Part shown: piece after piece, positions 4,623-32,256 of the stretch
Numbering within the stretch: position 1 is the first letter of the stretch
How the letters are laid out: each line of letters starts with the position of its first letter
Origin: Candidatus Hydrogenedentota bacterium
GTDB lineage: Bacteria; Hydrogenedentota; Hydrogenedentia; Hydrogenedentales; SLHB01
Length of the DNA: 64,000 bases
Direction of reading: 5' to 3'
Assembly: GCA_016215105.1 (NCBI GenBank)
Contig: JACRLJ010000022.1
Span: 3,407 to 67,406 of the forward strand
Translations under genes and position numbers: made by a program
The notes under the pieces: generated by a model
What the model was told of the DNA's origin: nothing
Databases searched by the model: none
The model's input: the letters and a program-made list of their open reading frames with translations, nothing else

Positions 4623-4662
4623 GATAAAGATTTGGCAAAGCTGCGGCAAAGGTTAGGCAATC
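4623..4662 (-). promoter_or_regulatory. Phased 11-bp direct-repeat array (4 units) upstream of receiver gene 4545
   Basis: Minus-strand units start at 4662, 4651, 4640, 4629: GATTGC, CTTTGC, CTTTGC, CTTTAT, with exact 11-bp spacing. A -10-like TGATAT (minus, 4605..4600) follows. Confidence 0.6.
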
Positions 4663-4799
4663 TACGCGCGGCGCCGGAAGAATCCTTCCGCCACAGACGC
4701 GGATGCGTGTTTTTCACGACGACGAACTCCTGACCGTGATTGATTCCGGCGCTACGCGGGCCACGCTCGTCTGGGAAGAGGCTCCGAGTTATACGAAAG

Positions 4800-4821
4800 C
4801 TTTACTGTCACTTTGCCTGCG
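4800..4821 (+). promoter_or_regulatory. Phased direct repeats (2 units) upstream of small ORF 4928
   Basis: CTTTAC at 4800 and CTTTGC at 4811, 11 bp apart. Confidence 0.4.
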
Positions 4822-4927
4822 CGACTTGTTGTGTTGCTATCCTCGAGAGGTGCTTGGCATGCCGCCAACACACAAAGATGGACGCTCGGGCGCGATAGCG
4901 CCTCAGCGCAAGCATAGGAGAAAGCAG

Positions 4928-5029
4928 ATGAGACACCTAAAGTCAGTCGCAATCGCGAAGGCCAACTCATGGAATGATTTCTGGAACAGCGTTGGAGACA
5001 CGTGGCGGAACATCTTTGGCAAGAACTGA
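4928..5029 (+). CDS. Candidate 33-aa protein
   Basis: ATG is preceded by AGGAG with a 7-nt spacer. Product: MRHLKSVAIAKANSWNDFWNSVGDTWRNIFGKN. Bracketed by a repeat array upstream and a 12-bp-stem hairpin downstream. No family recognised. Confidence 0.35.
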   Translation: MRHLKSVAIAKANSWNDFWNSVGDTWRNIFGKN

Positions 5030-5074
5030 TAGACGCGCCGGGTTAGTTCTCATAGAACGGTCCTGGCGCTTTTC

Positions 5075-5114
5075 CAACGGCTGCCGCCGCTGGCGTTTGC
5101 GACGGCAGCCGTTG
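5075..5114 (+). terminator. Stem-loop after small ORF
   Basis: CAACGGCTGCCG (5075..5086) pairs with CGGCAGCCGTTG (5103..5114). A short T-containing tail follows. Confidence 0.4.
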
Positions 5115-5140
5115 TGAGTTTCGGTCCGTTGCATTGATGT

Positions 5141-5190
5141 CTTTGCTAAAGCTTTACCAGGCCTTTGCCTAAGTCTTACGTGAACTTGCC
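5141..5190 (+). promoter_or_regulatory. Phased 11-bp direct-repeat array (4-5 units) upstream of DUF3309 gene
   Basis: Units at 5141, 5152, 5163, 5174: CTTTGC, CTTTAC, CTTTGC, TCTTAC, then CTTGCC at 5185. -10-like GATACT at 5196..5201. Confidence 0.65.
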
Positions 5191-5280
5191 AAGCTGATAC
5201 TGAAGAAGTTGCCAATGGTGGCTGTGGTGTTCACGGCGGCCGGGTTTACGGGGTATTGACCCCGAAAAGGAGTTTTTGCC

Positions 5281-5445
5281 ATGGGTTTGATCTTGCTAAT
5301 CATCGTGATCGTGCTGCTCGTGGGCGCTGCACCCACTTGGCCGCACAGCCGGAGTTGGGGCTATGGCCCCAGCGGCGGTTTGGGACTCGTGTTGGCGATT
5401 GTGGTGGTGCTCTTGCTCTTGGGATACCTCCCTCGTAGCTTCTAG
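5281..5445 (+). CDS. DUF3309-family small membrane protein (54 aa, below ORF-track cutoff)
   Basis: Own translation: MGLILLIIVIVLLVGAAPTWPHSRSWGYGPSGGLGLVLAIVVVLLLLGYLPRSF. It contains the typical P.W..SR.WGY.PSGGLG core. Confidence 0.8.
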   Translation: MGLILLIIVIVLLVGAAPTWPHSRSWGYGPSGGLGLVLAIVVVLLLLGYLPRSF

Positions 5446-6239: not shown

Positions 6240-9176
6240 ATGTCTACAATTACTCTCGATCCATCCACTTTCGACCACGCCGGCCCGGAGGATATTGTTA
6301 CCGAGGTCAGGCACGAAGAGGCCTTGCTCAAGACCGGGGCCCTGCAAAACGCCATTTTCAACAGCGCCAACTTCTCGAGTATCGCCACCGATGAAAAAGG
6401 CGTCATTCAACTGTTCAACGTCGGGGCCGAGCGCATGCTGGGTTACACGGCCGCCGATGTGGTGAATAAGATCACTCCCGCGGACATCTCCGACCCGCAG
6501 GAAGTCGTGGCACGCGCCAAGGCGTTGAGCTTGGAGCTCGCCACCCCGATCACGCCGGGCTTCGAGGCGTTGGTTTTTAAGGCCTCACGCGGCATCGAAG
6601 ATATTTACGAGCTGACCTACGTCCGCAAAGATGGCAGCCGCTTTCCGGCGGTCGTGTCGGTTACGGCGCTCCGCGACGATCAGGGCGGAATCATCGGCTA
6701 TTTGCTGATCGGCACCGATAACTCCGCGCGCAAGCAGGCGGAAGAGGCGCTGCTGAAGGCAGGCGCCCTGCAGAACGCTATCTTCAATAGCGAGAATTTC
6801 TCGAGCATCGCCACCGACGCGAAAGGCGTAATCCAAATCTTCAACGTCGGCGCCGAGCGGATGCTTGGCTACACAGCGGCCGAAGTGATGAACAAGATCA
6901 CTCCGGCAGACATTTCCGATCCTCAGGAGTTGATAGCGCGCGCCAAGTCGTTGAGCGTCGAGCTCGGAACCCCGATTACGCCGGGGTTCGAGGCGCTGGT
7001 TTTCAAGGCCTCACGCGGCATCGAGGATATTTACGAACTGACCTATATCCGCAAAGACGGAAGCCGATTTCCGGCGGTCGTATCGGTCACGGCGCTGCGC
7101 GACGCCCAGGACGCCATTATCGGCTATCTGCTGATCGGCACCGAACTCAAAGCCGGGGCTCTGCAGAGCGCGATCTTCAACAGCGCCAACTTTTCAAGCA
7201 TCGCCACCGACGCTAAAGGCGTAATCCAGATCTTCAATGTCGGCGCCGAGCGGATGTTGGGCTACACGGCGGCCGAAGTGATGAATAAGATCACCCCGGC
7301 CGACATCTCCGATCCTCAGGAGCTGATCGCGCGCGCTAAGGCATTGAGCATCGAGCTTGCAACGCCAATATCGCCGGGCTTCGAGGCCCTGGTTTTCAAG
7401 GCCTCGCGCGGTATCGAGGACATTTACGAGCTGACCTATATCCGCAAGGATGGTAGCCGCTTCCCAGCTGTCGTGTCGGTCACGGCGCTGCGCGACGCTC
7501 AAGGCGCAATCATCGGCTATCTGCTTATCGGCACCGATAACACCGCGCGCAAGCAGGTCGAGGCGGAGCAGAAACAACTCAGTCAGCGCCTACACGACCA
7601 GCAGTTCTACACGCGCTCGCTGTTCGAATCCAACATTGACGCGCTGATGACCACCGATCCGCTCGGCATCATCACCGACGTCAACAAGCAGATGGAAGCG
7701 CTTACCGGCTGTACGCGCGACGAGTTGATTGGCGCGCCTTTCAAGAACTACTTCACGGATCCCGAGCGGGCCGAGACGAGCATCAAACTGGTGTTAAGCC
7801 AGAAGAAGATCACCAACTACGAGCTTACCACGCGCGCCAGGGATGGCAAGGAAACCGTGGTGTCCTATAACGCTACGACATTCTACGACCGGGACAGAAG
7901 ACTGCAGGGCGTGTTCGCCGCGGCGCGCGACGTTACCGAGCTCAAGCGCTTTGAACAAACACTGCAGCAGACGAACGCCGAACTCGAGAGCGCAACCTCC
8001 GTGGCGGAAAAGGCGAACCTCGCGAAATCGGATTTCCTTTCCAGCATGAGCCACGAACTGCGTAGCCCGCTCAACGCCATTCTTGGTTTTGCCCAGTTGA
8101 TGGAATCCGACTCCCCACCGCCAACGGCTGGTCAGAAGGAAAGCATAGCCCAAATTCTCCAGGCGGGATGGCATCTGCTGAAATTGATCAACGAGATTCT
8201 CGACCTTGCGCAAATCGAGTCCAGAAAGGCGCCGCTCTCACAGGAACCGGTGTCGCTGGCCGAGGTCATGCTCGAATGCCAGGGCATGTTCGAGCCACTA
8301 GCGCAACGGCATGGCATCCGCGTGTCCTTTCCTCAGTTCGATGCTCCGTGTTTCGTTCACGCGGATCGGACTCGGGTGAAGCAGGTTCTCATTAACCTGC
8401 TTTCCAACGCGATCAAATACAACTGCGAGCAGGGGACTGTCGAGGTGCAATGCGCCATGAGCGCCCCGGGACGCATTCGTGTCAGCATCAAAGACACCGG
8501 CGCGGGACTGTCCGCGGAACAGTTGGCGCAGCTATTCCAGCCGTTCAACCGGCTCGGACAAGAAGCCGGCGGCGAAGAAGGTACGGGCATCGGCCTCGTG
8601 GTCGCCAAGAAGCTCATTGAACTGATGGAGGGTGTAATTGGCGTGGAAAGCTCCGTCGGGGCGGGAAGTGTGTTCTGGTTCGAACTCAACGCGACCAATG
8701 CGCCAGAATTGTCCCTTGAAGGAAATGAACCCCTGGCGTCGGCCGAATCACATGTTCAGACCGGCGCGCGCCTCCGCACTGTGCTCTGTATAGAGGATAA
8801 CCCGGCTAACCTGGAATTGATTGGGCAACTCGTCGCGCGTCGCCTCGATATTACCCTGCTGTCCGCGGTCAACGGGAATAGCGGTATCGAACTTGCCCGC
8901 GCCTCGCAGCCGGAAGTGATTCTTATGGACATCAATTTGCCTGATATCAGCGGCTTCGAAGCGTTGAATCTCCTGCGCGACGACCCGGCGACGGCGCGCA
9001 TTCCCGTCGTTGCTATCAGCGCAAATGCAATGCCACGCGACATTGAGAACGGAATGAAGGCTGGATTCTTCCGGTATCTCACAAAACCGATTAGGGTCAA
9101 TGAGTTCATGGGCACATTGAATGACGCTTTAGCACTCGCGGAAACGGTCGCCAAAGACGTTACTGGGGACCAATAG
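6240..9176 (+). CDS. Hybrid sensor histidine kinase (4 PAS, HisKA, HATPase_c, receiver)
   Basis: H-box FLSSMSHELRSPLN; N/G boxes LLSNAIKYN and DTGAGL...GTGIGL; C-terminal receiver VLCIEDNPANL...ILMDINLPDISGF...LTKP. Confidence 0.95.
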   Translation: MSTITLDPSTFDHAGPEDIVTEVRHEEALLKTGALQNAIFNSANFSSIATDEKGVIQLFNVGAERMLGYTAADVVNKITPADISDPQEVVARAKALSLELATPITPGFEALVFKASRGIEDIYELTYVRKDGSRFPAVVSVTALRDDQGGIIGYLLIGTDNSARKQAEEALLKAGALQNAIFNSENFSSIATDAKGVIQIFNVGAERMLGYTAAEVMNKITPADISDPQELIARAKSLSVELGTPITPGFEALVFKASRGIEDIYELTYIRKDGSRFPAVVSVTALRDAQDAIIGYLLIGTELKAGALQSAIFNSANFSSIATDAKGVIQIFNVGAERMLGYTAAEVMNKITPADISDPQELIARAKALSIELATPISPGFEALVFKASRGIEDIYELTYIRKDGSRFPAVVSVTALRDAQGAIIGYLLIGTDNTARKQVEAEQKQLSQRLHDQQFYTRSLFESNIDALMTTDPLGIITDVNKQMEALTGCTRDELIGAPFKNYFTDPERAETSIKLVLSQKKITNYELTTRARDGKETVVSYNATTFYDRDRRLQGVFAAARDVTELKRFEQTLQQTNAELESATSVAEKANLAKSDFLSSMSHELRSPLNAILGFAQLMESDSPPPTAGQKESIAQILQAGWHLLKLINEILDLAQIESRKAPLSQEPVSLAEVMLECQGMFEPLAQRHGIRVSFPQFDAPCFVHADRTRVKQVLINLLSNAIKYNCEQGTVEVQCAMSAPGRIRVSIKDTGAGLSAEQLAQLFQPFNRLGQEAGGEEGTGIGLVVAKKLIELMEGVIGVESSVGAGSVFWFELNATNAPELSLEGNEPLASAESHVQTGARLRTVLCIEDNPANLELIGQLVARRLDITLLSAVNGNSGIELARASQPEVILMDINLPDISGFEALNLLRDDPATARIPVVAISANAMPRDIENGMKAGFFRYLTKPIRVNEFMGTLNDALALAETVAKDVTGDQ
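6324..7559 (+). repeat. Three tandem near-identical PAS-encoding units inside the kinase gene
   Basis: Units cover roughly 6324..6749, 6750..7145 and 7146..7559. The protein blocks LLK(T/A)GALQ(N/S)AIFNS.NFSSIATD.KGVIQ(L/I)FNVGAERMLGYTAA.V.NKITPADISDPQE... are almost identical. The unit 2/3 junction lacks the ~10-aa linker DNSARKQAEEAL. Confidence 0.9.
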
Positions 9177-9177
9177 C

Positions 9178-10134
9178 ATGGTGACCGCAATCGACATTCT
9201 CAACGCCAAAATCCTGCTTGTGGATGATCTGGAAGCCAATGTCCGGCTTCTCGAGCGTACGCTGCGTGGCGCCGGCTACGTCTCGGTCGCTTCCACAATG
9301 AATCCACGTGAAGTCTGCGAACTCCACCGAAAGAACCGTTACGACTTGATAATGCTCGATCTACAGATGCCTGGCATGGATGGATTCGAGGTGATGGCGG
9401 GCCTTAAAGAGATCGAGGCCGGCGGCTATCTTCCGGTTCTCGTGGTCACGGTAAATCCGGGTCACAAGCTGCACGCTCTGCAAGCCGGCGCAAAGGATTT
9501 TGTCAGCAAGCCGCTTGAGTTGGTCGAGGTCCAGGCGCGCGTTTACAACATGCTCGAAGTGCGGCTCCTCCACCAGGAAGCGCGCAATTACAGTAAGGCG
9601 CTGGAATCCTTGGCGCTGCATGACCCGCTTACAGGGCTTGCGAATAGACGACTTCTGGTCGAGAAGGCGTCGCTGGCCATTGCCCATGCGCGAAGAAATA
9701 AGAGCAGCATGGCGGTAGTGTATGTGGATTTAGATGGATTCAAGTCGATCAACGACACTTGGGGCCACGACGCTGGGGATATTCTGCTGAAAATGACGGC
9801 AGAACGCCTTGTGGCCGCCGTGCGTCAAGAGGACACCGTGTCACGCCTGGGCGGTGATGAGTTCGTGATAGCTCTGTGGCAAATTCGGAATGCCGACGAC
9901 GCAGCCAGGGTGGGGTCCAAATTGATGGAGGCGATGTTGCCGCCCTTTAGCATCCAAGGGCGCGTGGTAGACATTACCGCGAGCGCAGGCCTCGGCATCT
10001 ACCCTGCCCACGGCGAGGACGTGGAGACGCTAATGAAGAGCGCGGATCTGGCCTTGTACGATGCGAAGCGCGCGGGCAAGAACGCCTATCAGGTCTCCGA
10101 ACGCACGAACCTATCCGCTACAGTGAGCTGTTGA
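9178..10134 (+). CDS. Response regulator with GGDEF diguanylate cyclase output
   Basis: Receiver (LLVDDLEANV...IMLDLQMPGMDGF...FVSKP). GGDEF motif RLGGDEFVIAL, with an RQED I-site-like RxxD five residues upstream. Confidence 0.95.
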   Translation: MVTAIDILNAKILLVDDLEANVRLLERTLRGAGYVSVASTMNPREVCELHRKNRYDLIMLDLQMPGMDGFEVMAGLKEIEAGGYLPVLVVTVNPGHKLHALQAGAKDFVSKPLELVEVQARVYNMLEVRLLHQEARNYSKALESLALHDPLTGLANRRLLVEKASLAIAHARRNKSSMAVVYVDLDGFKSINDTWGHDAGDILLKMTAERLVAAVRQEDTVSRLGGDEFVIALWQIRNADDAARVGSKLMEAMLPPFSIQGRVVDITASAGLGIYPAHGEDVETLMKSADLALYDAKRAGKNAYQVSERTNLSATVSC

Positions 10135-10226
10135 CATGACCGATCCCGATCTAGCGGGCCATGAATTGTACGCCGGGATCTACAAAAGAAGGTGGAAGCC
10201 TGAGTTCATGACGCAGGGCCAGTTTC

Positions 10227-11417
10227 ATGGTTGATTCATCCGGCATTCACAACGCCAAAATCCTGATCGTTGATGATCTGGAAGCCAACGTCCGCCTGCT
10301 CGAGCGCACGCTACGCGGGGCCGGCTATGCTTCCGTCGTGTCCACGATGGACCCGTACGAGGTCTGTGAGCTCCACCGAAAGAACTGCTACGACTTAATC
10401 CTGCTGGATCTGCAGATGCCAGGCATGGATGGATTTCAGGTAATGGAAGGCCTCAAAGAAATTGAGACCGGTGGCTATCTCCCTGTTCTCGTGGTCACGG
10501 CTCAGCCGGGTCACAAGCTGCGCGCGCTGCAAGCCGGCGCGAAGGATTTCGTCAGCAAACCGTTTGATCTGGTCGAGGTCCAGGCGCGCGTCTACAACAT
10601 GCTCGAAGTGCGCCTGTTGCACACGGAAACGAAGAACCACGCCAAAGTGCTGGAGCAGACGCTGCGGGAGGTTGAGGAAAGCCGTGAGCTGATCCGCCTC
10701 CAGAACTGCGAGCTCAAGGGCCTCTACGATGACATCGTAATTGAGCAGAAGCTGTCAGAGAGACTCCTGCTCAACGTACTGCCCCGCGCTATTGCCGAGC
10801 GCCTGAAAGGGCGCCGCGAGGACATTGGTGACAGCTTTCCGGAGATTATTGCGGATAGCTTTCCGGAGGTGACCGTATTGTTCGCCGATATCGTTGGGTT
10901 TACGAAGTTTTCCACCGGTGTAAGTCCTGAGCGGCTCGTAGTTCTCCTTAATGAGATTTTCTCTGATTTTGACACCATCGCGGATACCCGTGGCCTCGAA
11001 AAAATAAAGAGTATTGGCGATGCCTACATGGCCGCCGCTGGACTGCCCGCACCCGTGGACGATCACGCGGCGCGGGCTGCACACATGGCGCTGGATATGC
11101 TTGACGCGCTGGACTGCTTTAATAAGCGTAGCGGCTACCGGTTACAAATTCGCATCGGCATCAACAGTGGCGCGGTGGTGGCGGGCGTCATTGGCAAACG
11201 GAAGTTCATATACGACTTGTGGGGCGCTACGGTGAACACCGCCAGCCGAATGGAATCCCATGGCGTTGCAGGACGTGTGCAAATCTCTCAGGCCACCCGG
11301 TCGCGCCTCGGCGACCCCTTCCTGTTCGAGGATCGTGGCGCCATCGACGTCAAGGATATCGGCGAACTCCGAACTTGGTTCCTGACCGGCAGGGCGCAAC
11401 GCGCCGTGGCCATGTGA
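10227..11417 (+). CDS. Response regulator with class III adenylate/guanylate cyclase output
   Basis: The receiver is nearly identical to that of 9178..10134. Cyclase motifs: VTVLFADIVGFT, KSIGDAYMAAAG, IRIGINSGAVVAGVIG, YDLWGATVNTASRMES. Confidence 0.95.
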   Translation: MVDSSGIHNAKILIVDDLEANVRLLERTLRGAGYASVVSTMDPYEVCELHRKNCYDLILLDLQMPGMDGFQVMEGLKEIETGGYLPVLVVTAQPGHKLRALQAGAKDFVSKPFDLVEVQARVYNMLEVRLLHTETKNHAKVLEQTLREVEESRELIRLQNCELKGLYDDIVIEQKLSERLLLNVLPRAIAERLKGRREDIGDSFPEIIADSFPEVTVLFADIVGFTKFSTGVSPERLVVLLNEIFSDFDTIADTRGLEKIKSIGDAYMAAAGLPAPVDDHAARAAHMALDMLDALDCFNKRSGYRLQIRIGINSGAVVAGVIGKRKFIYDLWGATVNTASRMESHGVAGRVQISQATRSRLGDPFLFEDRGAIDVKDIGELRTWFLTGRAQRAVAM

Positions 11418-11427
11418 GGTAATTTCC

Positions 11428-14430: not shown

Positions 14431-14623
14431 CCTTTCTTCCGTCACCAGGAGTCCGCTGTTCGAGAATGTCGTGGCCGCATTCTTCCGCAGCTTCATATCA
14501 CAACAGTACCTGTCCGAGGTGAAGTTCTGGCAAACGGCGGGTGAAGCTTTGCTACTGGCCTTACAGCGCGTGTGCCCGGTGAGAGAAGCAGGCAAAGTCG
14601 TGGTCGTGCATGCACTTGGAGGG

Positions 14624-21845: not shown

Positions 21846-23587
21846 TTCCCGTCGTCCTTAACCGGGGTGAACCGTCTTGACCTTTCAGTTCGCGACTGAA
21901 CGAGCCGTGAGCGCTGTGCCTGCGCGTGTTTTTCACGTAATCCTTCCTGCTCGATATCCGTCATCACGGCATTTGCCTCGGCGTCAAATTCGGACTGAAG
22001 CGCTTTGAGACGCGCGAGCAAGGCGGTGTGCTTGTGGTCTAGGCTTCGGCGTCTGCTTTGGCGCGACTGCTCATTGGCAATGCCATTGGACTTTTCGCGC
22101 GCCTGAAGGGCCTCGCGAGAGGAACCGGTAACGATTCCGTCAGGTCCGATGGCGACCTTAATCAGTCTTGCGCCATGATTCGTCAGCACGAATTCGCGGA
22201 TTTGATTGGAATGGGGCATTCCACGCGATTTCAAAATATACAAGCTTCGGTTGCGTTCGCCAGCCTGTTCCAAGTTGCGCAACAGGAGCCAGGTATCGAT
22301 CAGGGAAGAGATTCCCACTTCCGCTGCGCCCGGCGTGGTGTCTTCTGAAATCAGGCTGGTGAAAACGGCGGTAATCTGCCGGGATTTCAGGAAATCCACT
22401 ATCCGCAGGAGCATCGTCTTGGCGTCACCATGCGAGCCTACGGCCTCAAAGTCGGTGATGGGGTCTATAACGACATTTCGAGGTCTGAACTGCTCGATCT
22501 CCTGGTGTACGGTGACCAAATGCATCTCGAGCCCCAGCAGTGTGGGGCGGGAGGCCTTGATTTGCAGCAGTCCCTTTTTCAGCCATTGCCCGAGGTCGAG
22601 TCCAATGGATCTCATATTGCGAAGAATTTGGCTTTCGGATTCCTCGAACGCCAGGAATGAGCAACGCTCGCCGCGGCGGCAGGCGGCATCCACAAAATGA
22701 GCCGCCATGCTCGTCTTGCCTGTGCCTGGCGTGCCGGTAATCAGGACGGTGCTCCCGCGGAAATATCCCTTTCCGCCCAGCATGGCGTCCAGCTCGGGAA
22801 TGCCGCTCGACAGCCGGGCGGATGTCGCCTGGTGCTCCAAACTTAGCCCGGTGACCGGTAGTACGGAGAACCCCTGCTTATCGATCAGGAAGGGGTACTC
22901 GTTGGTTCCATGGATCGTTCCCCGGTACTTGACCACGCGCATCCGGCGCGTCGCCATCTGGTCGATCACGCGGTGATCGAGCAGTATCACGCAATCCGAG
23001 ACATATTCCTCGAGACCTTGCCGAGTGAGTGTACTTACGCCGCGCTCCGCGGTGATGACGGCCGTAAGACCCTCATCCTTGAGCCAGCGAAACAGCCTGC
23101 GCAGTTCTCCGCGCAGGATGAAGTCGTTGGACAGGCCGGCAAAGAGAGCTTCAACGGTGTCCAGGACGATGCGTTTCGCGCCGATGGATTTGACGGCGTG
23201 CGCGATGCGTATGAAGAGCCCTTCCAAATCATACTCGCCCGATTCCAGAATCTCGCAGCGTTCCACGTGGACGTAGTCAATCGCCAGCTTCTTCTGCCGG
23301 GAGAGTTTGTCGAGATCAAACCCCAGAGATCGAACGTTCTTGGCCAGTTCGTCGGCGGTTTCCTCGAACGCGATGAAGACCCCCGGTTCGCCGAACTCGA
23401 CCGCGCCGCGGACGAGGAATTCGATGGCGAACAGCGTCTTCCCGCTGCCCGCGCCCCCGCATACCAGCGTCGGGCGGCCCCGGGGAATCCCGCCATTTGT
23501 AATTTCATCCAGGCCGGCAATTCCCGTAGGGGACTTGGCCAATCCATTACCTGAGCGCGTTTCCGTCTTCCGTTTCTTTCTCAACAT
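21842..23587 (-). CDS. kaiC: KaiC with ~60-aa C-terminal helical extension
   Basis: Two RecA-like halves with Walker A GGAGSGKT and [29 protein letters not shown] and [22 protein letters not shown]. The phospho-site region reads [12 protein letters not shown]. The tail is ...[41 protein letters not shown]... Confidence 0.95.
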
Positions 23588-23698
23588 GCTGGCGCCAAGC
23601 CCTCCGATTGTTCTTACTCCAAGCCGTCACTGACGAGTACCCAGAAAGAACTCTTTGGCGTTCATAGGTACACCTTGACTCAATCGAACCACTCCAAG

Positions 23699-23726
23699 AT
23701 GAAGTTTTGGTAAAGGGCGGGTAAAG
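23699..23726 (-). promoter_or_regulatory. Phased direct repeats (2 consensus units plus 1 weak) upstream of kaiC
   Basis: Plus-strand GGTAAAG at 23709..23715 and 23720..23726 gives minus-strand CTTTACC twice, 11 bp apart. A weaker CTTCAT is in phase. About 120-140 nt before the kaiC start. Confidence 0.5.
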
Positions 23727-23768
23727 ATTCACTATACAACGTTGGCGCCCGGAGAGTTCCGCCTACGA

Positions 23769-24084: not shown

Positions 24085-24128
24085 ATTTACCAAATTTTTA
24101 CCGGTCTTTTGCCGGGAAATTACGTAAC
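24085..24128 (+). promoter_or_regulatory. Phased 11-bp direct-repeat array (4 units) upstream of 24234
   Basis: Units at 24085, 24096, 24107, 24118: ATTTAC, TTTTAC, TTTTGC, AATTAC. Confidence 0.65.
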
Positions 24129-24233
24129 TCCGGCTCAATAGAGGCGTTGGCGCGGTCCAGGCCGGACGCAGGGGCCACAAGGATTCCATCGTGCGGCCAA
24201 ACGATCAATCGAAAAAGGAAAGGGTGGACACCG

Positions 24234-24785
24234 ATGAGAACAAACTGCATCGCTGCGATCATAGTACTGGCGGCCATTGTCCTGCCGACGGTCGTACTCG
24301 GTATAACGTCACCGAACGCGCAAGCAGACCAGCCCGGCGCGGCGCAAACGAACGCGCCAGCAGGTACCGCGCCGGTTAAGGCGCCGATGTCGGCCTGTCC
24401 CATGTGCTCTATGGCGGAAGGCGTGGCAACAAGCAAAGACATGCCTCCGGCCATGAAGCAGCACTGCGACATGATGATAAAAGCCGAACTGTCGAAGGAC
24501 GACGCGTCGTGCCTTCTTGCGCTCAAGCAGGAGCTGAAGCTCACGCCGGAGCAGGTTCAACAGCTCGACCAGATCCTCAAGGAGAGCAGGGAAAAGGCGG
24601 CCGCCCTGCTTACGCCCGAGCAGCAGAAATCCCTGGTGGAATGCACAGGGCAGCCGATGTCCATGAAGACAATGCACTCAAGAATGCACGGGACGACGAT
24701 GCAGAAGATGGATAGTCCCGCCAAGATGACACCGAAGGATAAGGAGGCGGAGAAGCCGGAAGGCGCCGCTTCGTCTGCTAAGTAA
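24234..24785 (+). CDS. Met-rich periplasmic protein with Spy/CpxP/ZraP-like LTPEQ helices
   Basis: Signal MRTNCIAAIIVLAAIVLPTVVLG. Met/Cys cluster MSACPMCSM...MPPAMKQHCDMM. LKLTPEQVQQLDQILKESREKAAALLTPEQQKSL. Confidence 0.6.
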   Translation: MRTNCIAAIIVLAAIVLPTVVLGITSPNAQADQPGAAQTNAPAGTAPVKAPMSACPMCSMAEGVATSKDMPPAMKQHCDMMIKAELSKDDASCLLALKQELKLTPEQVQQLDQILKESREKAAALLTPEQQKSLVECTGQPMSMKTMHSRMHGTTMQKMDSPAKMTPKDKEAEKPEGAASSAK

Positions 24786-24810: not shown

Positions 24811-25203
24811 ATGAACCCGAAGACACAAGATAACCTGTTGAAAGCGATGCACGGCGAGGCGTTTGCTTTCGTGAAATATACGCTGTTTGCCCAGAAAGCC
24901 CGGCAGAACGGCCGCGAAGAACTCGCCGCTCTGTTCGAGACTACGGCCCAGATCGAGCGCCTCGAGCACTTTGCCGAAGAGGCCGAACTGGCCGGGTTGG
25001 TGGGCAACGATGACGACAACTTGCGCGACGCGATCCAAGGCGAGTCGTATGAGGTGGACACGATGTACCGCGAGTTCGCCGAGCAAGCTTCCGCCGCCGG
25101 GGACGCGGACGCTGCTGCCCGGTTCGCCGAGGTGGGCCGGGACGAGATGGGGCATCGCGACGCCTTCAAGGCCGCCCTGCAAAAGATCAAGCTCGCCAGG
25201 TAG
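24811..25203 (+). CDS. Rubrerythrin-family ferritin-like diiron protein (no rubredoxin domain)
   Basis: Two E...ExxH halves: GEAFAF...ERLEHF and GESYEV...DEMGHRDAF. Confidence 0.85.
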   Translation: MNPKTQDNLLKAMHGEAFAFVKYTLFAQKARQNGREELAALFETTAQIERLEHFAEEAELAGLVGNDDDNLRDAIQGESYEVDTMYREFAEQASAAGDADAAARFAEVGRDEMGHRDAFKAALQKIKLAR

Positions 25204-25460: not shown

Positions 25461-25515
25461 ATTTACCGAAGTCCTGCCGAGTTATTGCCGAAGATTTGCC
25501 GGAGTCTGGCCTACT
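25461..25515 (+). promoter_or_regulatory. Phased 11-bp direct-repeat array (3 strong plus 2 weak units) upstream of 25585
   Basis: Units at 25461, 25472, 25483, 25494, 25505: ATTTAC, TCCTGC, TATTGC, ATTTGC, TCTGGC. Confidence 0.55.
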
Positions 25516-25584: not shown

Positions 25585-25836
25585 ATGAGTGAATGCTATA
25601 AGCGCACTGGCGCCAGGTATGGAATCGACAATCGAGGGCTATGCTCGCACGCGGAGGCCAATGGATTGGGGGAAGTTCTTGCCGCGCTCAACTGGCATGT
25701 AGGAGAGGCCCGCGTAATCGACGGGCGGAGCCAGACCGTGGCCCTTGCCGGCACGGTAGACGAGGTGCAGAACTCGATAAGCGGTCTATCTCCATGCCAG
25801 GGAGTACCCGCCCGCGAGGCGGTCGAAAAGCGGTAG
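25585..25836 (+). CDS. Hypothetical protein (83 aa)
   Basis: Strong RBS AAGGAG 7 nt before the ATG. No family recognised. Confidence 0.45.
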   Translation: MSECYKRTGARYGIDNRGLCSHAEANGLGEVLAALNWHVGEARVIDGRSQTVALAGTVDEVQNSISGLSPCQGVPAREAVEKR

Positions 25837-25857
25837 CGTTCGAGAGTATGGGAGTTC

Positions 25858-26223
25858 ATGCACGAGCACGGGGAATCAGCCGATATGAGCGTCCGGTGTC
25901 TTGATGGAGTCAGGGATACGATCTATCGCGAAGAAGGTGTGGTCGCCACACGGTCAACGGCTGGATTCTGTATTCGAGTGCCTTACCCCGTTTCCTCGCA
26001 TCACCAATTTGGTATTGCCGGGGCACTGTGGGAAATTTGGGCCGCGATACGCGATCAAGTAGTGGATTCAGACCACGAGTGCATCGTGGATGTATCCGCG
26101 GTCGAGAACTTGCCGCTCCCGCTCATCTACGTCTTGGCGGCGATGGACGGCGATATGAATCAAGCCGGCCGCAAACTCATTTCCGTTGGCGCAAGACAGG
26201 GAGACCATCAGCGGTACACATGA
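25858..26223 (+). CDS. Hypothetical protein, weakly STAS/anti-sigma-antagonist-like
   Basis: IVDVSAVENLPLPLIYVLAAMDGDMNQAGRKLISVGAR resembles the STAS C-terminal pattern. This is a weak call. Confidence 0.3.
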   Translation: MHEHGESADMSVRCLDGVRDTIYREEGVVATRSTAGFCIRVPYPVSSHHQFGIAGALWEIWAAIRDQVVDSDHECIVDVSAVENLPLPLIYVLAAMDGDMNQAGRKLISVGARQGDHQRYT

Positions 26224-26290
26224 GAACTCCGGTGGCGGATGCGCGTGGCGAAACATCCGCGTCAACACAAAGAACGAAAGGATACGCAAC

Positions 26291-29005
26291 ATGTTTACAC
26301 GAAAAGCGCTGAGAGTGGGAGCGTCTGTCTTGGGATGTGCAGCATTGATTGTCGCCTTGGGCGGATGTCCGCGCGCGAGCGCGCCCACCGTGAGTTCCAC
26401 CGACCCCGCGAGTGGCGCGATCGGCGTACCGGTCAACAGGAACCTTGCCGTAACCTTCAGTGAGGCGATGAACCCTGCAACGATCACCCCAACGACATTC
26501 ACGTTGACGCAAGGAACAACGCCCGTACCAGGCACAGTGACCTACTCGGGCGTGACCGCGATCTTTAATCCCACCAACACCCTGGAGTCCAATACGCAGT
26601 ATACGGCCACGATTACCACCGGGGCCCAGGCCCAGCGTCGAATGTGCAAGGGTGACGAGGGTATTGCGCTCTTCCTCGTGGGCTTTCTACTTGCAGGACA
26701 TGCAAGTCAGGCACGAGCGGATAGCGCATTGGCAGAGAACTTTGTGTGGACCTTTACCACGGGTGAGTCCACAGACACCACGGCGCCGGCCGTCAGTTCC
26801 ACCGATCCCGCAAACGGAGCCACTGGCGTGCCGCCCGGCAGAAACCTCTCCGCCACTTTCAGCAAGGCAATGAACCCTCTGACGATTACCACTGCAACAT
26901 TCACCTTGAGGCACGGGACGACGCCCGTTGCAGGCACAGTGAGCTATGCGGGCATCACTGCGGTCTTTAACCCCACAGGATCGCTGCCCTCTAGTACCTT
27001 GTATACGGCCACAATTACGAGCGGAGCCACCGACCTGGCTGGGAATGCGCTGGCCAGTGATCACGTGTGGACCTTCACCACCGGCGCTTCTGCAGACACC
27101 ACAGCGCCCACCGTGAGTTCCACCAACCCTGTGAATGGCGCGATAGGTGTGCCGGTCAATATGAAGATCGCCGCTGCCTTCAGCGAGGCGATGGACCCAT
27201 TGACGATCAGCACGGCAACTTTTACCGTGATGCAAGGAACAACGCGCGTCGCGGGTACGGTGACCTATGCGGGCGTGACCGCGATCTTTACACCCACAGG
27301 CGGTCTGGCGTCCGGGACCCAATATACCGCCAGGATTACGAGCGCGGCAGAGGACTTGGCTGGGAACGCACTGACAGGTGGCCACGTGTGGACCTTTACC
27401 ACAGGCGGCGGCGCCGACACCACGGCGCCGGCGGTAAGTTCCACCGACCCTGCGAATAGCGCCACAGGCGTGCCTATCAATAAGAACCTCTCCGCTACCT
27501 TCAGTGAAGCGATGGCCCCCTTGACGATCTCCACCGCAACATTCACCTTGGAACAAGGGACGACGCCCGTCACTGGCACGGTGACCTACGCAGGAGTTAC
27601 CGCGGTCTTTAATCCCGCGAGCCCTCTCGCGGCCGACACTGAATACACCGCCACGATTACGAATGAGGCCGATGACCTCGCTGGAAACGCACTGGCGAGT
27701 GAACACGTGTGGAGCTTTACCACCGGAACCACCGCAGACACCACGGCGCCCACCGTGAACTCTACCGATCCCGCGGGTGGCGCGATAGACGTGTCCGTCA
27801 ACAAGAAGATCGCCGCCACCTTCAACGAGGCGATGAATCCCCTGACAATCACCACGACAACATTCACCCTGAAACACGGGACGACACCCGTTGCTGGCGC
27901 GGTCGGCTATGCAGGCGTTACCGCGACCTTCACACCCGCAACAACTCTGGCGCCCAACACGACCTATACGGCCACTGTTTTGATGGAAGCGACGGACGTG
28001 GCTGGGAACGGGCTGGCCGGTGACCATGTATGGACCTTCACCACCGGCGCCACGGCTGACGCCACCGCTCCCACAGTGAGTTCCGCCGATCCTATAGATA
28101 GCGCGATAGGCGTTCCGCTCAATAAGAAGGTCGCCGCCACCTTCAGCGAGGCGATGGACCCCTTGACCATTACCACGGCAACGTTCACCTTGGAGCAAGG
28201 GACGACGCCCGTTGCAGGCGCGGTAACCTATATGGGCATGACCGCGACCTTTACGCCGGCTGCCGCGTTGACAGCAGGTACAGAATATACCGCCACGATT
28301 ACGACCGGCGCCGAGGACCTGGCGGGGAACGCAGTCGCAAGTGACCACGTGTGGACCTTCACCACGGGAACAACGACGGCTCAAGTGGAGATAGACTTGG
28401 GATCGGCGAACGCGTTCGCGATACTGGCGGGCTCCACGGTCACCAACACTGGTCCTAGTATAGTCACCGGAGATCTGGGCGTGAGCCCTGGTACCGCCGT
28501 GGTGGGATTTCCGCCCGGAATACTGAACGGGGCTATATTCACAGGCGTTGCTTCCGCTGCTGGCCAAGCCAAACTCGACTTGACCGCCGCCTTTAACGAC
28601 GCCGCCGGACGCTCCGTAGGTCCGGTCTCCTTGCCGGGAGATCTAAGCGGGCTAACCCTATACCCTGGTCTCTACACTAACTCGACCTCGGTCATGCTAT
28701 CGGCTGGGAACGTCACTCTCGACGCGCAGGGTGACTCCAATGCGGTCTTTCTCTTCCAGATGGGTTCCACGCTCACCACGGGGGTTGGTACCCAAGTGGT
28801 CCTGAGCGGTGGCGCCAAGGCTGCCAACGTCTACTGGCAGGTTGGCGCGTCGGCGACGCTGGGAACGAATTCTATCTTCAAGGGAAACATACTGGCCAGC
28901 GCGTCAGTCACGTTGACTACCGGAACCGCGCTGGAAGGCAGAGCGCTGACACAGACTGCCGCGGTTACATTGGACGATTCCGCTATCACAGTTCCTGCCC
29001 CGTAA
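26291..29005 (+). CDS. Lipoprotein with six Ig-like (SbsA/Big_5-type) repeats and C-terminal ice-binding-like DUF3494 domain
   Basis: Lipobox VLGCAALIVALGGC. Six ~105-aa units. The C-terminal IDLGSANAFAILAGSTVTNTGPSIVTGDLGVSPGTAVVGFPPG matches the DUF3494 N-terminal signature. Confidence 0.9.
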   Translation: MFTRKALRVGASVLGCAALIVALGGCPRASAPTVSSTDPASGAIGVPVNRNLAVTFSEAMNPATITPTTFTLTQGTTPVPGTVTYSGVTAIFNPTNTLESNTQYTATITTGAQAQRRMCKGDEGIALFLVGFLLAGHASQARADSALAENFVWTFTTGESTDTTAPAVSSTDPANGATGVPPGRNLSATFSKAMNPLTITTATFTLRHGTTPVAGTVSYAGITAVFNPTGSLPSSTLYTATITSGATDLAGNALASDHVWTFTTGASADTTAPTVSSTNPVNGAIGVPVNMKIAAAFSEAMDPLTISTATFTVMQGTTRVAGTVTYAGVTAIFTPTGGLASGTQYTARITSAAEDLAGNALTGGHVWTFTTGGGADTTAPAVSSTDPANSATGVPINKNLSATFSEAMAPLTISTATFTLEQGTTPVTGTVTYAGVTAVFNPASPLAADTEYTATITNEADDLAGNALASEHVWSFTTGTTADTTAPTVNSTDPAGGAIDVSVNKKIAATFNEAMNPLTITTTTFTLKHGTTPVAGAVGYAGVTATFTPATTLAPNTTYTATVLMEATDVAGNGLAGDHVWTFTTGATADATAPTVSSADPIDSAIGVPLNKKVAATFSEAMDPLTITTATFTLEQGTTPVAGAVTYMGMTATFTPAAALTAGTEYTATITTGAEDLAGNAVASDHVWTFTTGTTTAQVEIDLGSANAFAILAGSTVTNTGPSIVTGDLGVSPGTAVVGFPPGILNGAIFTGVASAAGQAKLDLTAAFNDAAGRSVGPVSLPGDLSGLTLYPGLYTNSTSVMLSAGNVTLDAQGDSNAVFLFQMGSTLTTGVGTQVVLSGGAKAANVYWQVGASATLGTNSIFKGNILASASVTLTTGTALEGRALTQTAAVTLDDSAITVPAP
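26381..28379 (+). repeat. Six tandem ~315-nt coding repeats
   Basis: Each unit reads TAP.VSSTDP..GA.GVP.N....ATFSEAM.PLTI.TATFTL..GTTPVAGTVTYAGVTA.F.P...L...T.YTATIT..A.DLAGNALA.DHVWTFTTG. Unit 1 carries an extra in-frame ~28-aa insert. Confidence 0.9.
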
Positions 29006-29496: not shown

Positions 29497-29541
29497 GTTT
29501 AGTCAAAGCTTTACCAGTACTTTGCCCGAAATTTGTGTGCG
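29497..29541 (+). promoter_or_regulatory. Phased direct-repeat array (3-4 units) upstream of PEP-CTERM gene
   Basis: GTTTAG at 29497 (12-bp step), then CTTTAC at 29509, CTTTGC at 29520 and ATTTGT at 29531. -10-like TGAAAT at 29547..29552. Confidence 0.6.
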
Positions 29542-29657
29542 TGTGGTGAAATGTACGCCGACAAGAGAGGCGCTGGTGACCGATGTGGTTGCCGCAAAAT
29601 GGGTTTTGGCAGTGCGGATGCTTCTAGCGATCCGCAGGCCAGTGAAAGGAGCTAATT

Positions 29658-30218
29658 ATGGATTTGAGATTGCATTGTCGAAGCCGGGGCTACGTGCCCG
29701 CCGGCGTAATGGGATTGGCGCTAATCATCGCGGGCATTCTCAGTCCGACGGCGTTGGCCACGAGCATAACGGACGTATGGGCGCCGACAACGTCGGATAC
29801 CACGGAGGTGAACCTGTATCAGGTGTACAACAGTATCTTTGCAACGAGTTACGCGAGTAGCAATGCCATACCGCAAGTGAGCCCGGATGAGATCTTCAAT
29901 CTCCTCGGTGGCGCGGCGGTTGTCACGGCGCAAGCTCGGTATGCCGGCCTGGGTCAGCAATTTGGCTACTATCAGCCGACAGATAGCAGAAATGGCGAAG
30001 ACCACATGGTTACGCTAGCCACGGCCGATCCCAATACCTTCTTGCTGGCCTTTGAAGACCTGCCCTTCGCGCTCTCCGACCGTGACTTCAATGACTTGGT
30101 GATCGAAGTGACAGTCCGGCCTGGGAACATCGTTCCGGAGCCCGCATCTATTTCGCTCCTGGGAATCGGCATCGCCGGTATGGTTCTTCGGAAATATCGT
30201 GGTAAGAAGACCGCATAG
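29658..30218 (+). CDS. PEP-CTERM sorting-domain protein with DUF4114-like region
   Basis: C-terminus VPEPASISLLGIGIAGMVLRKYRGKK (PEP motif, TM helix, basic tail). LSDRDFNDLVIEV resembles DUF4114. RBS AAAGGAG. Confidence 0.85.
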   Translation: MDLRLHCRSRGYVPAGVMGLALIIAGILSPTALATSITDVWAPTTSDTTEVNLYQVYNSIFATSYASSNAIPQVSPDEIFNLLGGAAVVTAQARYAGLGQQFGYYQPTDSRNGEDHMVTLATADPNTFLLAFEDLPFALSDRDFNDLVIEVTVRPGNIVPEPASISLLGIGIAGMVLRKYRGKKTA

Positions 30219-30443
30219 CGCCATGCAATCGCGCGGACTCGTTGAAACTGGACGCGTGAAGCAAGTGTACTTCAGACGCTGTGAACGCAGACCTGCCTGG
30301 GTCTGCGTTCACGTTCCCATGCCGATCCCTTCAGCAGCGGGCACGAACCAGTTTCTGTTGTTCGGCAACAATCGCGAGGAATAACCCGCGTCCTACAGAG
30401 CACTGCTGAAATCGCAAAACGATATTGTTGAAGGAGAACCATC

Positions 30444-30704
30444 GTGAATTGGGATCGCATTCAGGGCAATTGGAAACAGATCGCCGGCAAGGCGAAGACG
30501 AACTGGGGCAAACTGACCCACGATGACCAGATTACCTCTAGCGGGAGGAGTGAACGGCGCGCCGGGAAACGCCAGGCGCAGTATGGCCGCGAAGAAGAGC
30601 AAGCGGCGAGAGAATTTGACGCGTTTCACGAGGCCACTAGGATCACGGGCCGAGCCAGTTTTCCGGCCACAGTGTCCGACGACGAAAGCGCGAGGAAGTG
30701 CTGA
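30444..30704 (+). CDS. CsbD-family stress protein
   Basis: GTG start with RBS AAGGAG. NWDRIQGNWKQIAGKAKTNWGKLTHDD is the CsbD signature. Confidence 0.8.
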   Translation: MNWDRIQGNWKQIAGKAKTNWGKLTHDDQITSSGRSERRAGKRQAQYGREEEQAAREFDAFHEATRITGRASFPATVSDDESARKC

Positions 30705-30721
30705 AGGAAAGGTTTCACATC

Positions 30722-31867
30722 ATGGCCGCACCAATGCCTATCAACCCGCCGGCGCCGCGAATCAAAGAGATCTCCCTGCGCAAGATTCTCGCCTATGCGC
30801 TCGAACATAGGGCGTCTGACATCCACTTGAAAGTGGCGCGGCCGCCCGCCATTCGGGTAGACAGCGTGCTGAAATTCACGCGCATACCCGAACTGACGGA
30901 CGACGACATGTTGCGATTCCTGGACGAGATTATGAATCCGCAGCAGAAACAGCGCTTCCTGGAATCCGGAGACGCCGACCTCGCGGTGACCGTTACGGAC
31001 CTGGGAAGGTTTCGCGCAAATTGCTACCGGCAGCGGGGCTCGATCGCCATAGCCCTCCGATGTGTCAAGTCCGATATTCCGGACTTTCAGGCGCTGAATC
31101 TACCTGAGAAGGCGATGGAACGCATCGCATCGCTTCCCCGCGGCCTGGTCCTCATCACTGGAACAACGAGCAGTGGAAAATCGACCACGCTGGCCGCGCT
31201 CATCGACCGAATCAACGCGACTCGCCAAAGCCACATCGTGACGCTTGAGGACCCCATCGAGTACTTGCACTCCGACAAACAGTGCAGCGTAAGCCAACGC
31301 GAGGTCTCGATAGATACAAAGGACTTCGCGACGGGACTGCGGGCCATCATGCGCGAAGACCCAAACGTGATCCTGATTGGCGAAATGCGCGATATGGAGA
31401 CGTTCCATACCTGCCTTGGCGCGGCGGAGACCGGTCACCTCGTATTCAGCACACTGCACACGACGAATGTCACTATGACTATTGACCGCATACTGGACAT
31501 GTTTCCTCCGGACCAGCACGGGCAGATTAGGTCGCAGCTTGCGGTACAACTCCGCGCCATCGTTTCCCTGCGCCTCTTGCCGGTTGCCGAAGGAAATGGC
31601 CGCGTTCCGGCTGTGGAGGTCATGTTCAACAGCCCGGGTATCGCGTCACTAATCCGCGATAACGATATTGACCGGATACCGAATGCCATCGCTGATGGCG
31701 CCGAAGACGGAATGCAAACCTTCAATATGGCTCTTGTCAATCTCGTAAAGGAAAAGACTGTTACGCTCGTGACAGCTGAACTGGCTTCGGACAACCCGGA
31801 TGCGCTCAAGATGAATCTTCAAGGTATCTTTGGGAGCAGGGACCGCGGTGGGATTTCCAAGAGATAG
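30722..31867 (+). CDS. pilT: PilT-family type IV pilus retraction ATPase (orphan)
   Basis: ASDIHLKV...; Walker A GTTSSGKSTT; IVTLEDPIEY; ILIGEMRD; His box GHLVFSTLHT. No other pil genes in the window. Confidence 0.9.
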   Translation: MAAPMPINPPAPRIKEISLRKILAYALEHRASDIHLKVARPPAIRVDSVLKFTRIPELTDDDMLRFLDEIMNPQQKQRFLESGDADLAVTVTDLGRFRANCYRQRGSIAIALRCVKSDIPDFQALNLPEKAMERIASLPRGLVLITGTTSSGKSTTLAALIDRINATRQSHIVTLEDPIEYLHSDKQCSVSQREVSIDTKDFATGLRAIMREDPNVILIGEMRDMETFHTCLGAAETGHLVFSTLHTTNVTMTIDRILDMFPPDQHGQIRSQLAVQLRAIVSLRLLPVAEGNGRVPAVEVMFNSPGIASLIRDNDIDRIPNAIADGAEDGMQTFNMALVNLVKEKTVTLVTAELASDNPDALKMNLQGIFGSRDRGGISKR

Positions 31868-31901
31868 GTCAGATGCTTGCCGAAGACAAGGGAGATACTC
31901 A

Positions 31902-32039
31902 ATGGGTGACAGAAGTCAAAAAGACAAGAACAAGGGGCAGAAACAAAAAGCCGTAAAAGTGGCGGAGAAAGTGCAGAAGAAGAAGGATAAACAAGAGGCC
32001 GCGCCGCGTCAAAAAAACTTCGTCCTCGTCGGCTTCTGA
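31902..32039 (+). CDS. Candidate 45-aa Lys-rich protein
   Basis: RBS GGGAGA. Product: MGDRSQKDKNKGQKQKAVKVAEKVQKKKDKQEAAPRQKNFVLVGF. No family recognised. Confidence 0.3.
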   Translation: MGDRSQKDKNKGQKQKAVKVAEKVQKKKDKQEAAPRQKNFVLVGF

Positions 32040-32212
32040 GATAGCCTCGGAAAACGCCTCCGCCATGCCGATCTCGTTCACGACCCGTCCAGAATATTCG
32101 CGTTTTCCAAACGCGCCTGAGTCTTTGTCAAACAAGTACACCTGTTGACGTTCGCCGTCGTGCCGCGACGACGTGGAGACTCCGTCAATCGTAAGGCGAG
32201 TCTCGTAGATAA

Positions 32213-32256
32213 GTTTACTAAGGCTTTACGAGTTCTTTGCCCGGCGTCTACGTTAG
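32213..32256 (+). promoter_or_regulatory. Phased 11-bp direct-repeat array (4 units) upstream of the CsbD/DUF883 run
   Basis: Units at 32213, 32224, 32235, 32246: GTTTAC, CTTTAC, CTTTGC, GTCTAC. -10-like TTAATG at 32263..32268. Confidence 0.65.

Follow-up and report, generated by a model that had tools for sequence, protein, structure and literature searches.

Four-unit 11-bp direct-repeat arrays in Candidatus Hydrogenedentota as predicted operator sites of an OmpR/PhoB-family regulator

Tandem direct repeats with an 11-bp period are a described feature of the PhoB/SphR pho boxes, in which an 8-bp box and a 3-bp linker make up the period and the proximal box ends 10 bp before the -10 element and replaces the -35, as at the E. 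coli pho box, which lies 10 bp upstream of the -10 (PMC1906773). Operators of the CarH/LitR photoreceptors similarly consist of 3-4 tandem 11-bp direct repeats, nnnnTnnACAn, that lie on one DNA face near the -35 and overlap the -35 or the -10 (PMC9304148). Here we analyze 64,000 nucleotides of a Candidatus Hydrogenedentota bacterium (assembly GCA_016215105.1, contig JACRLJ010000022.1, positions 3,407 to 67,406 of the forward strand; hereafter the window), in which arrays of TTTACC-like direct repeats with the same period stand in front of genes, among them a kai operon and a single-domain receiver that we call REC150. We consider it probable, although well short of settled, that these arrays are operators bound by the OmpR/PhoB-family response regulator whose gene lies at 18065-18790. 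The mechanism itself, OmpR/PhoB-type activation from direct repeats, is of a well-known type; a literature search found no description of this regulon.

The likeness to the Pho system extends beyond the period. The gap between the fourth repeat unit and the predicted -10 is also 10 bp, the OmpR/PhoB-family regulator is likewise partnered with a PAS kinase, and the cyanobacterial SphR box CTTAACCT lies one base from the CTTTACC unit of the arrays (PMC1906773), for which reason Pho membership was tested against curated models. The regulator scored 173 bits against the TIGR02154 PhoB model (cutoff 296) and 158 bits against the Bacteroidota PhoB model (cutoff 270), and the kinases of the window and of the related locus L001 scored 126.5 and 122 bits against the TIGR02966 PhoR model (cutoff 334), all far below the cutoffs. 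Unlike pho boxes, the arrays always comprise four units, with a unit-specific consensus and an extended -10, and no pst, pho or phosphatase genes were found among the ~85 targets in the window and related loci. The possibility that the pair is this lineage's PhoR-PhoB was rejected on model cutoffs and target content. When the regulator was compared with NCBIfam equivalogs (best 25 of 90 families listed), its best resemblance was to RpaB (193 bits, cutoff 330), with MtrA at 186 bits (cutoff 300); it fell below every named cutoff, and no RpaA model was among those 25 families. Its nearest solved structures, MtrA, PrrA, RegX3, KdpE and RpaA (E value 5e-34 for RpaA), are all distant. These sub-cutoff scores imply that the regulator-kinase pair is an unnamed member of the OmpR/PhoB family, predicted to be PhoB-like in mode but not PhoB.

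General stress regulons such as PhyR-NepR-EcfG and RpoS overlap with the genes preceded by arrays in CsbD, DUF883/ElaB-like proteins, entericidin, single-domain receivers and PAS kinases. Unlike these systems, control here would be exerted by a predicted two-component activator with direct-repeat sites, with no alternative sigma factor. The window also resembles the cyanobacterial KaiC-SasA-RpaA output in that a Kai module is encoded together with a histidine kinase and an OmpR-family DNA-binding regulator. It departs from the cyanobacterial clock in that its KaiC is of the KaiA-independent Rhodobacter sphaeroides type, its regulator falls below the RpaB cutoff, and Kai linkage is seen only in the window and in one related locus, L002; the cyanobacterial HLR1 spacing is 10 bp, whereas the period here is 11. 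SasA has an N-terminal KaiB-like domain (PMC6769508), whereas the window kinase has PAS domains, and a Pfam search of the kinases for a KaiB-like (SasA-type) domain found none. KaiC homologs of Pseudomonas and other proteobacteria share operons with a histidine kinase and, in many cases, a single-domain receiver, are connected with stress resistance and, in one group, occur with an exopolysaccharide (EPS) sortase (10.1101/2022.01.26.477890); the regulon described here also contains a receiver, REC150, and a PEP-CTERM protein. In Pseudomonas the regulators of those modules are non-DNA-binding and no cis-element is known for them (10.1101/2022.01.26.477890), whereas here a DNA-binding regulator is found together with candidate sites.

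Phased arrays and their promoter architecture

The initial annotation of this sequence listed hexamers of the form xTTT[A/G]C that recur at exactly 11 bp in front of at least nine transcription units, and all of these hexamers were found again in place and on the same strands. A search of the 64-kb window for three NTTTRC units in which at least 14 of 15 positions match, run at periods from 9 to 13, returned 12 matches at period 11 and none at periods 9, 10, 12 and 13. The same three-unit search found no match in 30 dinucleotide-preserving shuffles, and two perfect NTTTRC units at period 11 were matched 12 times in the window against a shuffle mean of 0.13. Since matches are confined to period 11 and the shuffles are empty, we conclude that the phasing is real and non-random, as had been claimed. 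A position weight matrix (PWM) trained on nine window sites and scanned across the 64 kb added two arrays from outside the training set, (-)716 and (-)14557, and found nothing else above background, so that the lower bound of nine held while the original list proved incomplete. The window thus has 11 arrays (Table 1), all in its first 33 kb and all intergenic, each oriented toward the adjacent downstream gene in agreement with the earlier description; three divergent intergenic regions carry back-to-back pairs. Every array has four units, the first and/or last of which is degenerate in some, and this also applies to the arrays before the 33-aa open reading frame (ORF), kaiC and the PEP-CTERM gene, which had been recorded at the right sites as having two or three units. 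A weaker array proposed at 35190, before an AI-2E family transporter gene, did not hold up: no PWM hit above 8 falls on it, the maximum score across 33001-64000 is below 0, and no array precedes that gene in the window.

These results bear directly on the explanation of the repeats as chance, as low-complexity DNA or as a mobile or repetitive extragenic palindromic (REP)-type element with no regulatory role. Unrelated metagenome contigs often contain 11-base microsatellites that share the core of the repeats, and most of what a metagenome pattern scan for the arrays returned was unrelated 11-bp microsatellites from low-GC DNA. Such an origin is contradicted by the empty shuffles and other periods, by the constant number of four units with a unit-specific consensus and a fixed -10, and by a placement that is always intergenic and gene-oriented and is kept upstream of orthologs while the flanks diverge; an Rfam gathering scan of the whole window gave no match. 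We regard the probability of this explanation as practically negligible.

Promoter architecture was read in a manner that avoids circularity, in that sites in related loci were located by their repeat columns alone and the unscored downstream columns were then inspected. Across 60 such sites these columns read T46 G47 g48 T49 A50 n A52 A53 T54, with T54 in 90%, and they form a predicted extended -10, TGnTAnAAT, whose distance to the repeats is constant. The consensus of the 74 arrays outside the window is G-TTTACC-gAAa / C-TTTACC / C-TTTGCC / c-TTTAC-g / nnTGgTAnAAT. As a general pattern the four head-to-tail repeats read gTTTACCgAAa, cTTTACC, cTTTGCC and a weaker nTTyaC. In the full set of 85 arrays (340 units) the final unit base is C in 82-93% of units 1-3, and the core T-nn-RCC fits 186/340 units. 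With the predicted -10 hexamer set at -12 to -7, the units start at -61, -50, -39 and -28 and are centered near -58, -47, -36 and -25, the 10-bp gap being that between the unit 4 hexamer at offsets 33-38 and the predicted -10 hexamer at offsets 49-54. At a 16-18 bp spacer, the best -35 match to TTGACA was at most 3/6 in any of the 85 arrays, and an independent consensus scan over six arrays found no complete sigma-70 promoter. The fixed distance to the extended -10 and the lack of a detectable -35 support the earlier proposal that the repeats would stand in for the -35. The A/T-rich -10-like hexamers of that proposal correspond to an element that is present and more regular than described, with the exception of GATACT at 5196, which misses the register; the element in register there is TGcCAAGCT. 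In the window, sites in the 11-base register have an extra conserved block, ~GGCTnAAT, one turn further downstream.

Extended -10 promoters can function without a -35, and the regulator might bind the arrays as a repressor or dual regulator of otherwise constitutive promoters of this kind, with unit 4 placed in the spacer at -28 to -22, where bound protein could hinder polymerase. Such a role fits poorly with a spacing to the -10 that is in one register in 85 promoters and with the position of the strongest units at -61 to -33, which is PhoB activator geometry. In addition, the TG of the extended -10 is present in 45/85 arrays and the -10 hexamers are imperfect, so many of these promoters would be weak alone. 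On these grounds we judge repression or dual regulation to be distinctly unlikely and activation the better prediction.

In a separate observation, REC150 promoters (window 4590-4662 (-), L015, L207 and L210) share CTTCATCnCGG ACAGGTACCnT followed by (G/C)ATATGAA or ACATGGA, which points to a further site or to a -10 context of their own.

The regulator and the distribution of the arrays

Orthologs of the regulator form more than 120 clusters at 66-83% identity, almost all metagenomic, with an almost invariant recognition helix, PKxVDVH[IV]GHIRKK. A scan of species-representative genomes gave 29 loci with regulator orthologs (49-80% identity), mostly from Candidatus Hydrogenedentota metagenome-assembled genomes with some bins labeled Nitrospirales, Rhodothermaeota, Omnitrophota or FCB group, and 51 loci with paralogs (<=40% identity, other phyla). 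In nearly all ortholog loci a homolog of the kinase catalytic core is encoded directly upstream of the regulator gene, the usual adjacent kinase in other genomes being a soluble PAS-HisKA-HATPase protein of 364-436 aa. The simple three-unit scan at period 11 found 48 arrays in the ortholog loci (361 kb; 0-1 at other periods) and 5 in the paralog controls (846 kb), and the window-trained PWM found 52 arrays against 0 in the same two sets. Control DNA of the same lineage is also empty: the second part of the window (33001-64000) contains no arrays, and none were found in the neighborhoods of CarH-like orthologs (L201-L206, ~35 kb non-redundant; maximum PWM score 1.6). At 52 per 361 kb, these 66 kb should by our own arithmetic contain ~9.5 arrays. 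The arrays therefore travel with orthologs of the regulator and its kinase, which makes this OmpR/PhoB-type protein, one of two candidates named in the initial annotation, the likely binder. Genes whose orthologs are array-preceded across genomes encode REC150, DUF3309, the radical SAM protein, the rubrerythrin and methionine-rich proteins and the 83-aa protein, and more than 20 related genomes keep the arrays in front of orthologous genes while the flanks diverge, which is the conservation that had been anticipated for a genuine regulon. REC150 orthologs are array-preceded in 11 sampled loci, and in other genomes REC150 often follows directly after the regulator gene with the array between them; a counterpart of array 8, before the methionine-rich and rubrerythrin genes, is present in L001 and L003.

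Loci retrieved by other seeds show the same association of arrays with regulon genes. The array-seeded pattern scan yielded five contigs with the full anatomy (L104, L129, L133, L151 and L165) and probably also L084. Regulon genes (radical SAM, CsbD with p151, PilT, REC150) are carried by L104, L129, L151 and L165, the CsbD and p151 orthologs of L129 lying downstream of its array, and L133 gave no homolog hit; L104, the sole long contig among the five, also holds a kinase-regulator pair. A target-seeded sample built on REC150 (338 relatives) provided four long-contig loci, in each of which an array lies 116-221 nt upstream of REC150. Independent gene calls placed 0/14 arrays inside called genes in these four loci, consistent with the earlier remark that the repeats avoid coding regions. 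Two of them, L208 and L210, have arrays and no regulator within 10 kb. L209, like L104, is a further case of regulator and arrays occurring together.

Among the paralog loci, T[TA]TACC arrays follow the regulator gene in 3/6 loci with an H[IV]GH helix against 1/45 with other helices (Fisher p = 0.004), and the four-unit arrays of the three loci with the H[IV]GH helix, all proteobacterial, begin 47-213 bp past the end of the aligned regulator gene. The association is suggestive, and given the kinship of the three loci and the post hoc nature of the test we count it as one supporting observation.

Several points weigh against assigning the arrays to this regulator as activator sites. Co-localization is partly built in, as most related loci were fetched via the regulator gene. 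The ortholog and control loci also differ in phylum, and the same-lineage control amounts to only ~66 kb. Two paralogous regulator subfamilies (61-83% and 49-56% identity; L018 and L023) occur together in at least one bin. The pattern in L208 and L210 fits a dispersed regulon under a trans-acting factor and offers no support from proximity, the helix-array association comes from three loci that are related to one another and was examined post hoc, and an extended -10 able to work without a -35 is compatible with a repressor.

The paralogous subfamilies in one bin raise the possibility that the arrays are regulatory but bound by another OmpR-family paralog or by a winged-helix factor encoded elsewhere, the more so as TTTACC repeats at an 11-bp period serve other regulons in other lineages and the visible part of this genome is only 64 kb. 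This possibility has to contend with the recurrence of the regulator-array-REC150 arrangement and with the location of the window regulator in an array-driven operon. No other DNA-binding protein was seen to recur by the 85 arrays, in flanks that were not systematically scanned for DNA-binding domains. We view a different binder as unlikely, but as an alternative to be taken seriously.

The other candidate of the initial annotation was the CarH-like protein, which would place the arrays as operators of a B12 photoreceptor that represses in the dark. The proposal has some basis, since the format of 3-4 tandem 11-bp repeats is shared with CarH operators (PMC9304148), the window protein has the MerR plus B12-binding architecture, and the array unit T-nn-R-C-C is one base off T-nn-ACA. 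However, T-nn-ACA fits only 6/340 units, a strict T-nn-ACA array scan of the window found none, and the array promoters differ from CarH/LitR operators both in this core and in having no -35. Nor is the CarH-like gene co-distributed with the arrays: tblastn of 200 regulator-seeded and pattern-seeded loci found no CarH-like gene, the protein has ~7 relatives at >=54% identity compared with the more than 120 clusters of the regulator, and no arrays occur around CarH-like orthologs or upstream of the gene itself. The gene has instead a conserved palindrome of its own, TGTCTAA-N6-TT(A/C)GACA, upstream of the CarH-like/fasciclin unit in three genomes (window 43235-43254; L201 and L204, before the fasciclin gene), and conserved, light-related neighbors that encode fasciclin, a SOUL heme-binding protein, BLUF and a photolyase-related protein; a GTP cyclohydrolase I gene is conserved there as well. 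This neighborhood looks like a separate B12- or light-responsive unit with its own candidate operator, and control of the arrays by the CarH-like protein is very improbable.

Returning to the OmpR/PhoB-family regulator as the predicted binder, we propose that its partner PAS kinase would phosphorylate it and that the phosphorylated regulator would bind as two head-to-tail dimers on one DNA face. The promoter-proximal protomers would then cover the -35 region and bring in sigma-70 RNA polymerase, in the way known from PhoB at its pho boxes. The resulting regulon would be a general-stress-like set comprising REC150, DUF3309, CsbD, DUF883-like, entericidin-like, rubrerythrin, methionine-rich and radical SAM proteins, PAS signaling proteins and surface proteins, with REC150 probably acting as a feedback or phosphate-sink element.

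A candidate phylum without a cultured model would in this way gain a readable regulatory code consisting of a regulator family, a 55-bp promoter architecture and a conserved target set, and DUF3309, CsbD, the DUF883-like protein, the 83-, 121- and 323-aa proteins and the radical SAM enzyme would be given a shared context.

The Kai operon and a putative timing input

In the KaiA-independent KaiC/KaiB timer of R. sphaeroides, KaiC has two domains, a coiled-coil extension at its C-terminus and a Ser-Ser phospho-site, and kaiB lies next to its gene (PMC10076222). The window KaiC matches R. sphaeroides KaiC (8dba) over its full length (residues 14-568 aligned) with an E value of 8e-194, including the tail and the GISSL phospho-site segment; no exact match to it is on record. 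The window kaiC-kaiB set has the features of the R. sphaeroides type, and timer behavior is predicted from them. The operon runs kaiC-kaiB-kaiB-kinase-regulator on the minus strand with array 7 in front, and in L002 an array precedes REC150-kaiC-kaiB-kaiB-kinase with a separate short kinase-regulator pair nearby, so the kai operon is an array target in both genomes. Within the 10-kb flanks sampled, kai genes were found in these two loci only, and a kaiB remnant looked for at the edge of L011 was not found. The earlier idea of a timing regulon is accordingly plausible for this genome and that of L002 only, as most genomes with the regulon have no kai genes in the sampled flanks.

The first 520 residues of the window kinase share 65% identity with the long Kai-linked kinase of L002. 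In the catalytic core, identity reaches 81% with the short kinase next to the regulator in L001 and 72% with its counterpart in L002, but only 60% with the core of the long L002 kinase. The protein looks like a chimera of a sensor region of the Kai-linked type and a catalytic core of the short-kinase type. Kinase cores fall into two clades, each of which is found directly upstream of regulator orthologs, and this lends support to signaling from Kai-linked kinases to the regulator. Because the regulator and the chimeric kinase come last in the array-driven kai operon, the system would feed back positively on itself. Arrays upstream of the kinase-regulator pair were looked for in the other genomes and none were found, which suggests that positive autoregulation is special to the kai-fused arrangement of the window.

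In this genome the KaiA-independent KaiC/KaiB timer would probably gate the system. The fuller proposition, that a KaiC/KaiB hourglass is wired via the chimeric PAS kinase to a DNA-binding regulator whose family is a master stress switch across Candidatus Hydrogenedentota, is one we put forward tentatively, as a possibility that we rate somewhat below even. If it is true, timer, kinase, regulator, cis-element and regulon would make up the first complete predicted output path for Kai outside cyanobacteria. The kai operon as a target in two genomes, fused to the regulator here, offers a concrete candidate output pathway for primitive KaiC/KaiB timers, for which neither PMC10076222 nor 10.1101/2022.01.26.477890 reports a DNA-binding output regulator or cis-element.

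Target genes and neighboring features

In GC-rich DNA the nearest downstream ORF gave wrong frames for several arrays, and only gene clusters backed by homology or gene calls were trusted. The array-preceded gene set of the window (Table 1) supports the core of the earlier proposal, a regulon made mostly of small stress and envelope proteins.

Table 1. Arrays, predicted targets and regulatory genes of the window
Feature	Coordinates	Strand	Unit 1 start	Evidence or context
Array 1 (new)	662..716	-	-716	CCTTGCC/CTTTGCC/CTTCACC/GTATGT plus TTTGCTTTAAT; PWM score 46.8
Secreted protein gene after array 1	~353 to 1, beyond window start	-		ORF
REC150, single-domain receiver	4093..4545	-		Most conserved target
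Array 2	4608..4662	-	-4662	Predicted promoter of REC150
Array 3	4789..4843	+	+4789	Divergent from array 2; before small ORF 4859/4928..5029
Array 4	5141..5195	+	+5141	Predicted promoter of DUF3309 (5281..5445); kept upstream of DUF3309 orthologs
Array 5 (new, weaker)	14503..14557	-	-14557	PWM score 30.9; before lipoprotein with charged repeat tail (13957..14430)
Array 6	14624..14678	+	+14624	Predicted promoter of radical SAM gene (14780..16876), then conserved 323-aa protein (16960..17931)
OmpR/PhoB-family response regulator	18065..18790	-		241 aa; Pfam Response_reg and Trans_reg_C (receiver and winged helix)
Soluble multi-PAS histidine kinase	18831..21080	-		Pfam PAS, HisKA, HATPase
kaiB copy 2	21093..21458	-		Pfam KaiB, 3.7e-27
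kaiB copy 1	21465..21845	-		Pfam KaiB, 1.7e-26
kaiC, R. sphaeroides type, coiled-coil C-terminal tail	21842..23587	-		Pfam; structure match 8dba
Array 7	23683..23737	-	-23737	Predicted promoter of kaiC-kaiB-kaiB-kinase-regulator operon
Array 8	24085..24139	+	+24085	Divergent from array 7; methionine-rich secreted protein (24234..24785), rubrerythrin (24811..25203)
Array 9	25461..25515	+	+25461	Predicted promoter of 83-aa and 121-aa proteins
Array 10	29498..29552	+	+29498	Predicted promoter of DUF4114/PEP-CTERM protein (29658..30218)
Array 11	32213..32267	+	+32213	Before CsbD (32566..32763) run extending to ~35079
CarH-like protein	43339..44283			MerR and B12-binding architecture

The run behind array 11 encodes CsbD, a 151-aa protein, a DUF883/ElaB-like protein, a holin-like protein and an entericidin-like lipoprotein. 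Array 9 probably also drives a Big_5/ice-binding-like surface protein, the genes behind it spanning 25585..29005, and the radical SAM protein behind array 6 gave sub-threshold matches to B12-dependent radical SAM families. DUF3309 is followed on the same strand by genes for a hybrid PAS kinase, a receiver-GGDEF protein and a receiver-adenylate/guanylate cyclase (6240..11417, +), into which the array 4 unit possibly continues. Arrays also precede genes for PAS-domain proteins in five other loci; taken together with the cyclase and GGDEF genes after DUF3309, this suggests that the regulon may feed second-messenger signaling.

A WXXGXW-repeat protein gene (window 2149-3873, -) follows REC150 on the same strand. 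In L207 and L210 REC150 is followed by entericidin and WXXGXW protein genes, and in L208 DnaK and DnaJ genes stand there instead; REC150 and the WXXGXW gene are probably a conserved transcription unit. The AI-2E family transporter (window 35379-37334, +; L207 18103-19998) has a C-terminal B12-binding domain, and this fusion is kept in the closest relative.

Regulator orthologs at 64-79% identity occur with typical arrays in L002, L009, L010, L014 and L015, in bins labeled Nitrospirales or Nitrospiraceae; either these labels reflect mis-binning or mis-labeling, or the system extends beyond Hydrogenedentota. The three proteobacterial loci with four-unit T[TA]TACC arrays (L045, L065 and L067; ~10705-10915) encode a membrane kinase and an OmpR-type regulator that is 32-37% identical to that of the window and has a VDVH[IV]GHLR helix; in L045 the array stands before a gene for a large surface protein. 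A second array class, GTTTACCAAAA TTTTACCTTTA GTTTACCnnnn GTTTACC, was found in L081, L103, L111, L146, L148, L166, L191, L196 and L198 (GC 0.37-0.49). In several of these metagenome contigs a TAnnTTTG-like element comes next, and the downstream ORFs, in the cases where one was found, encode an efflux adaptor, a membrane sensor-like protein or other membrane or secreted proteins; this class appears to be a different regulon of another lineage with the same repeat and spacing.

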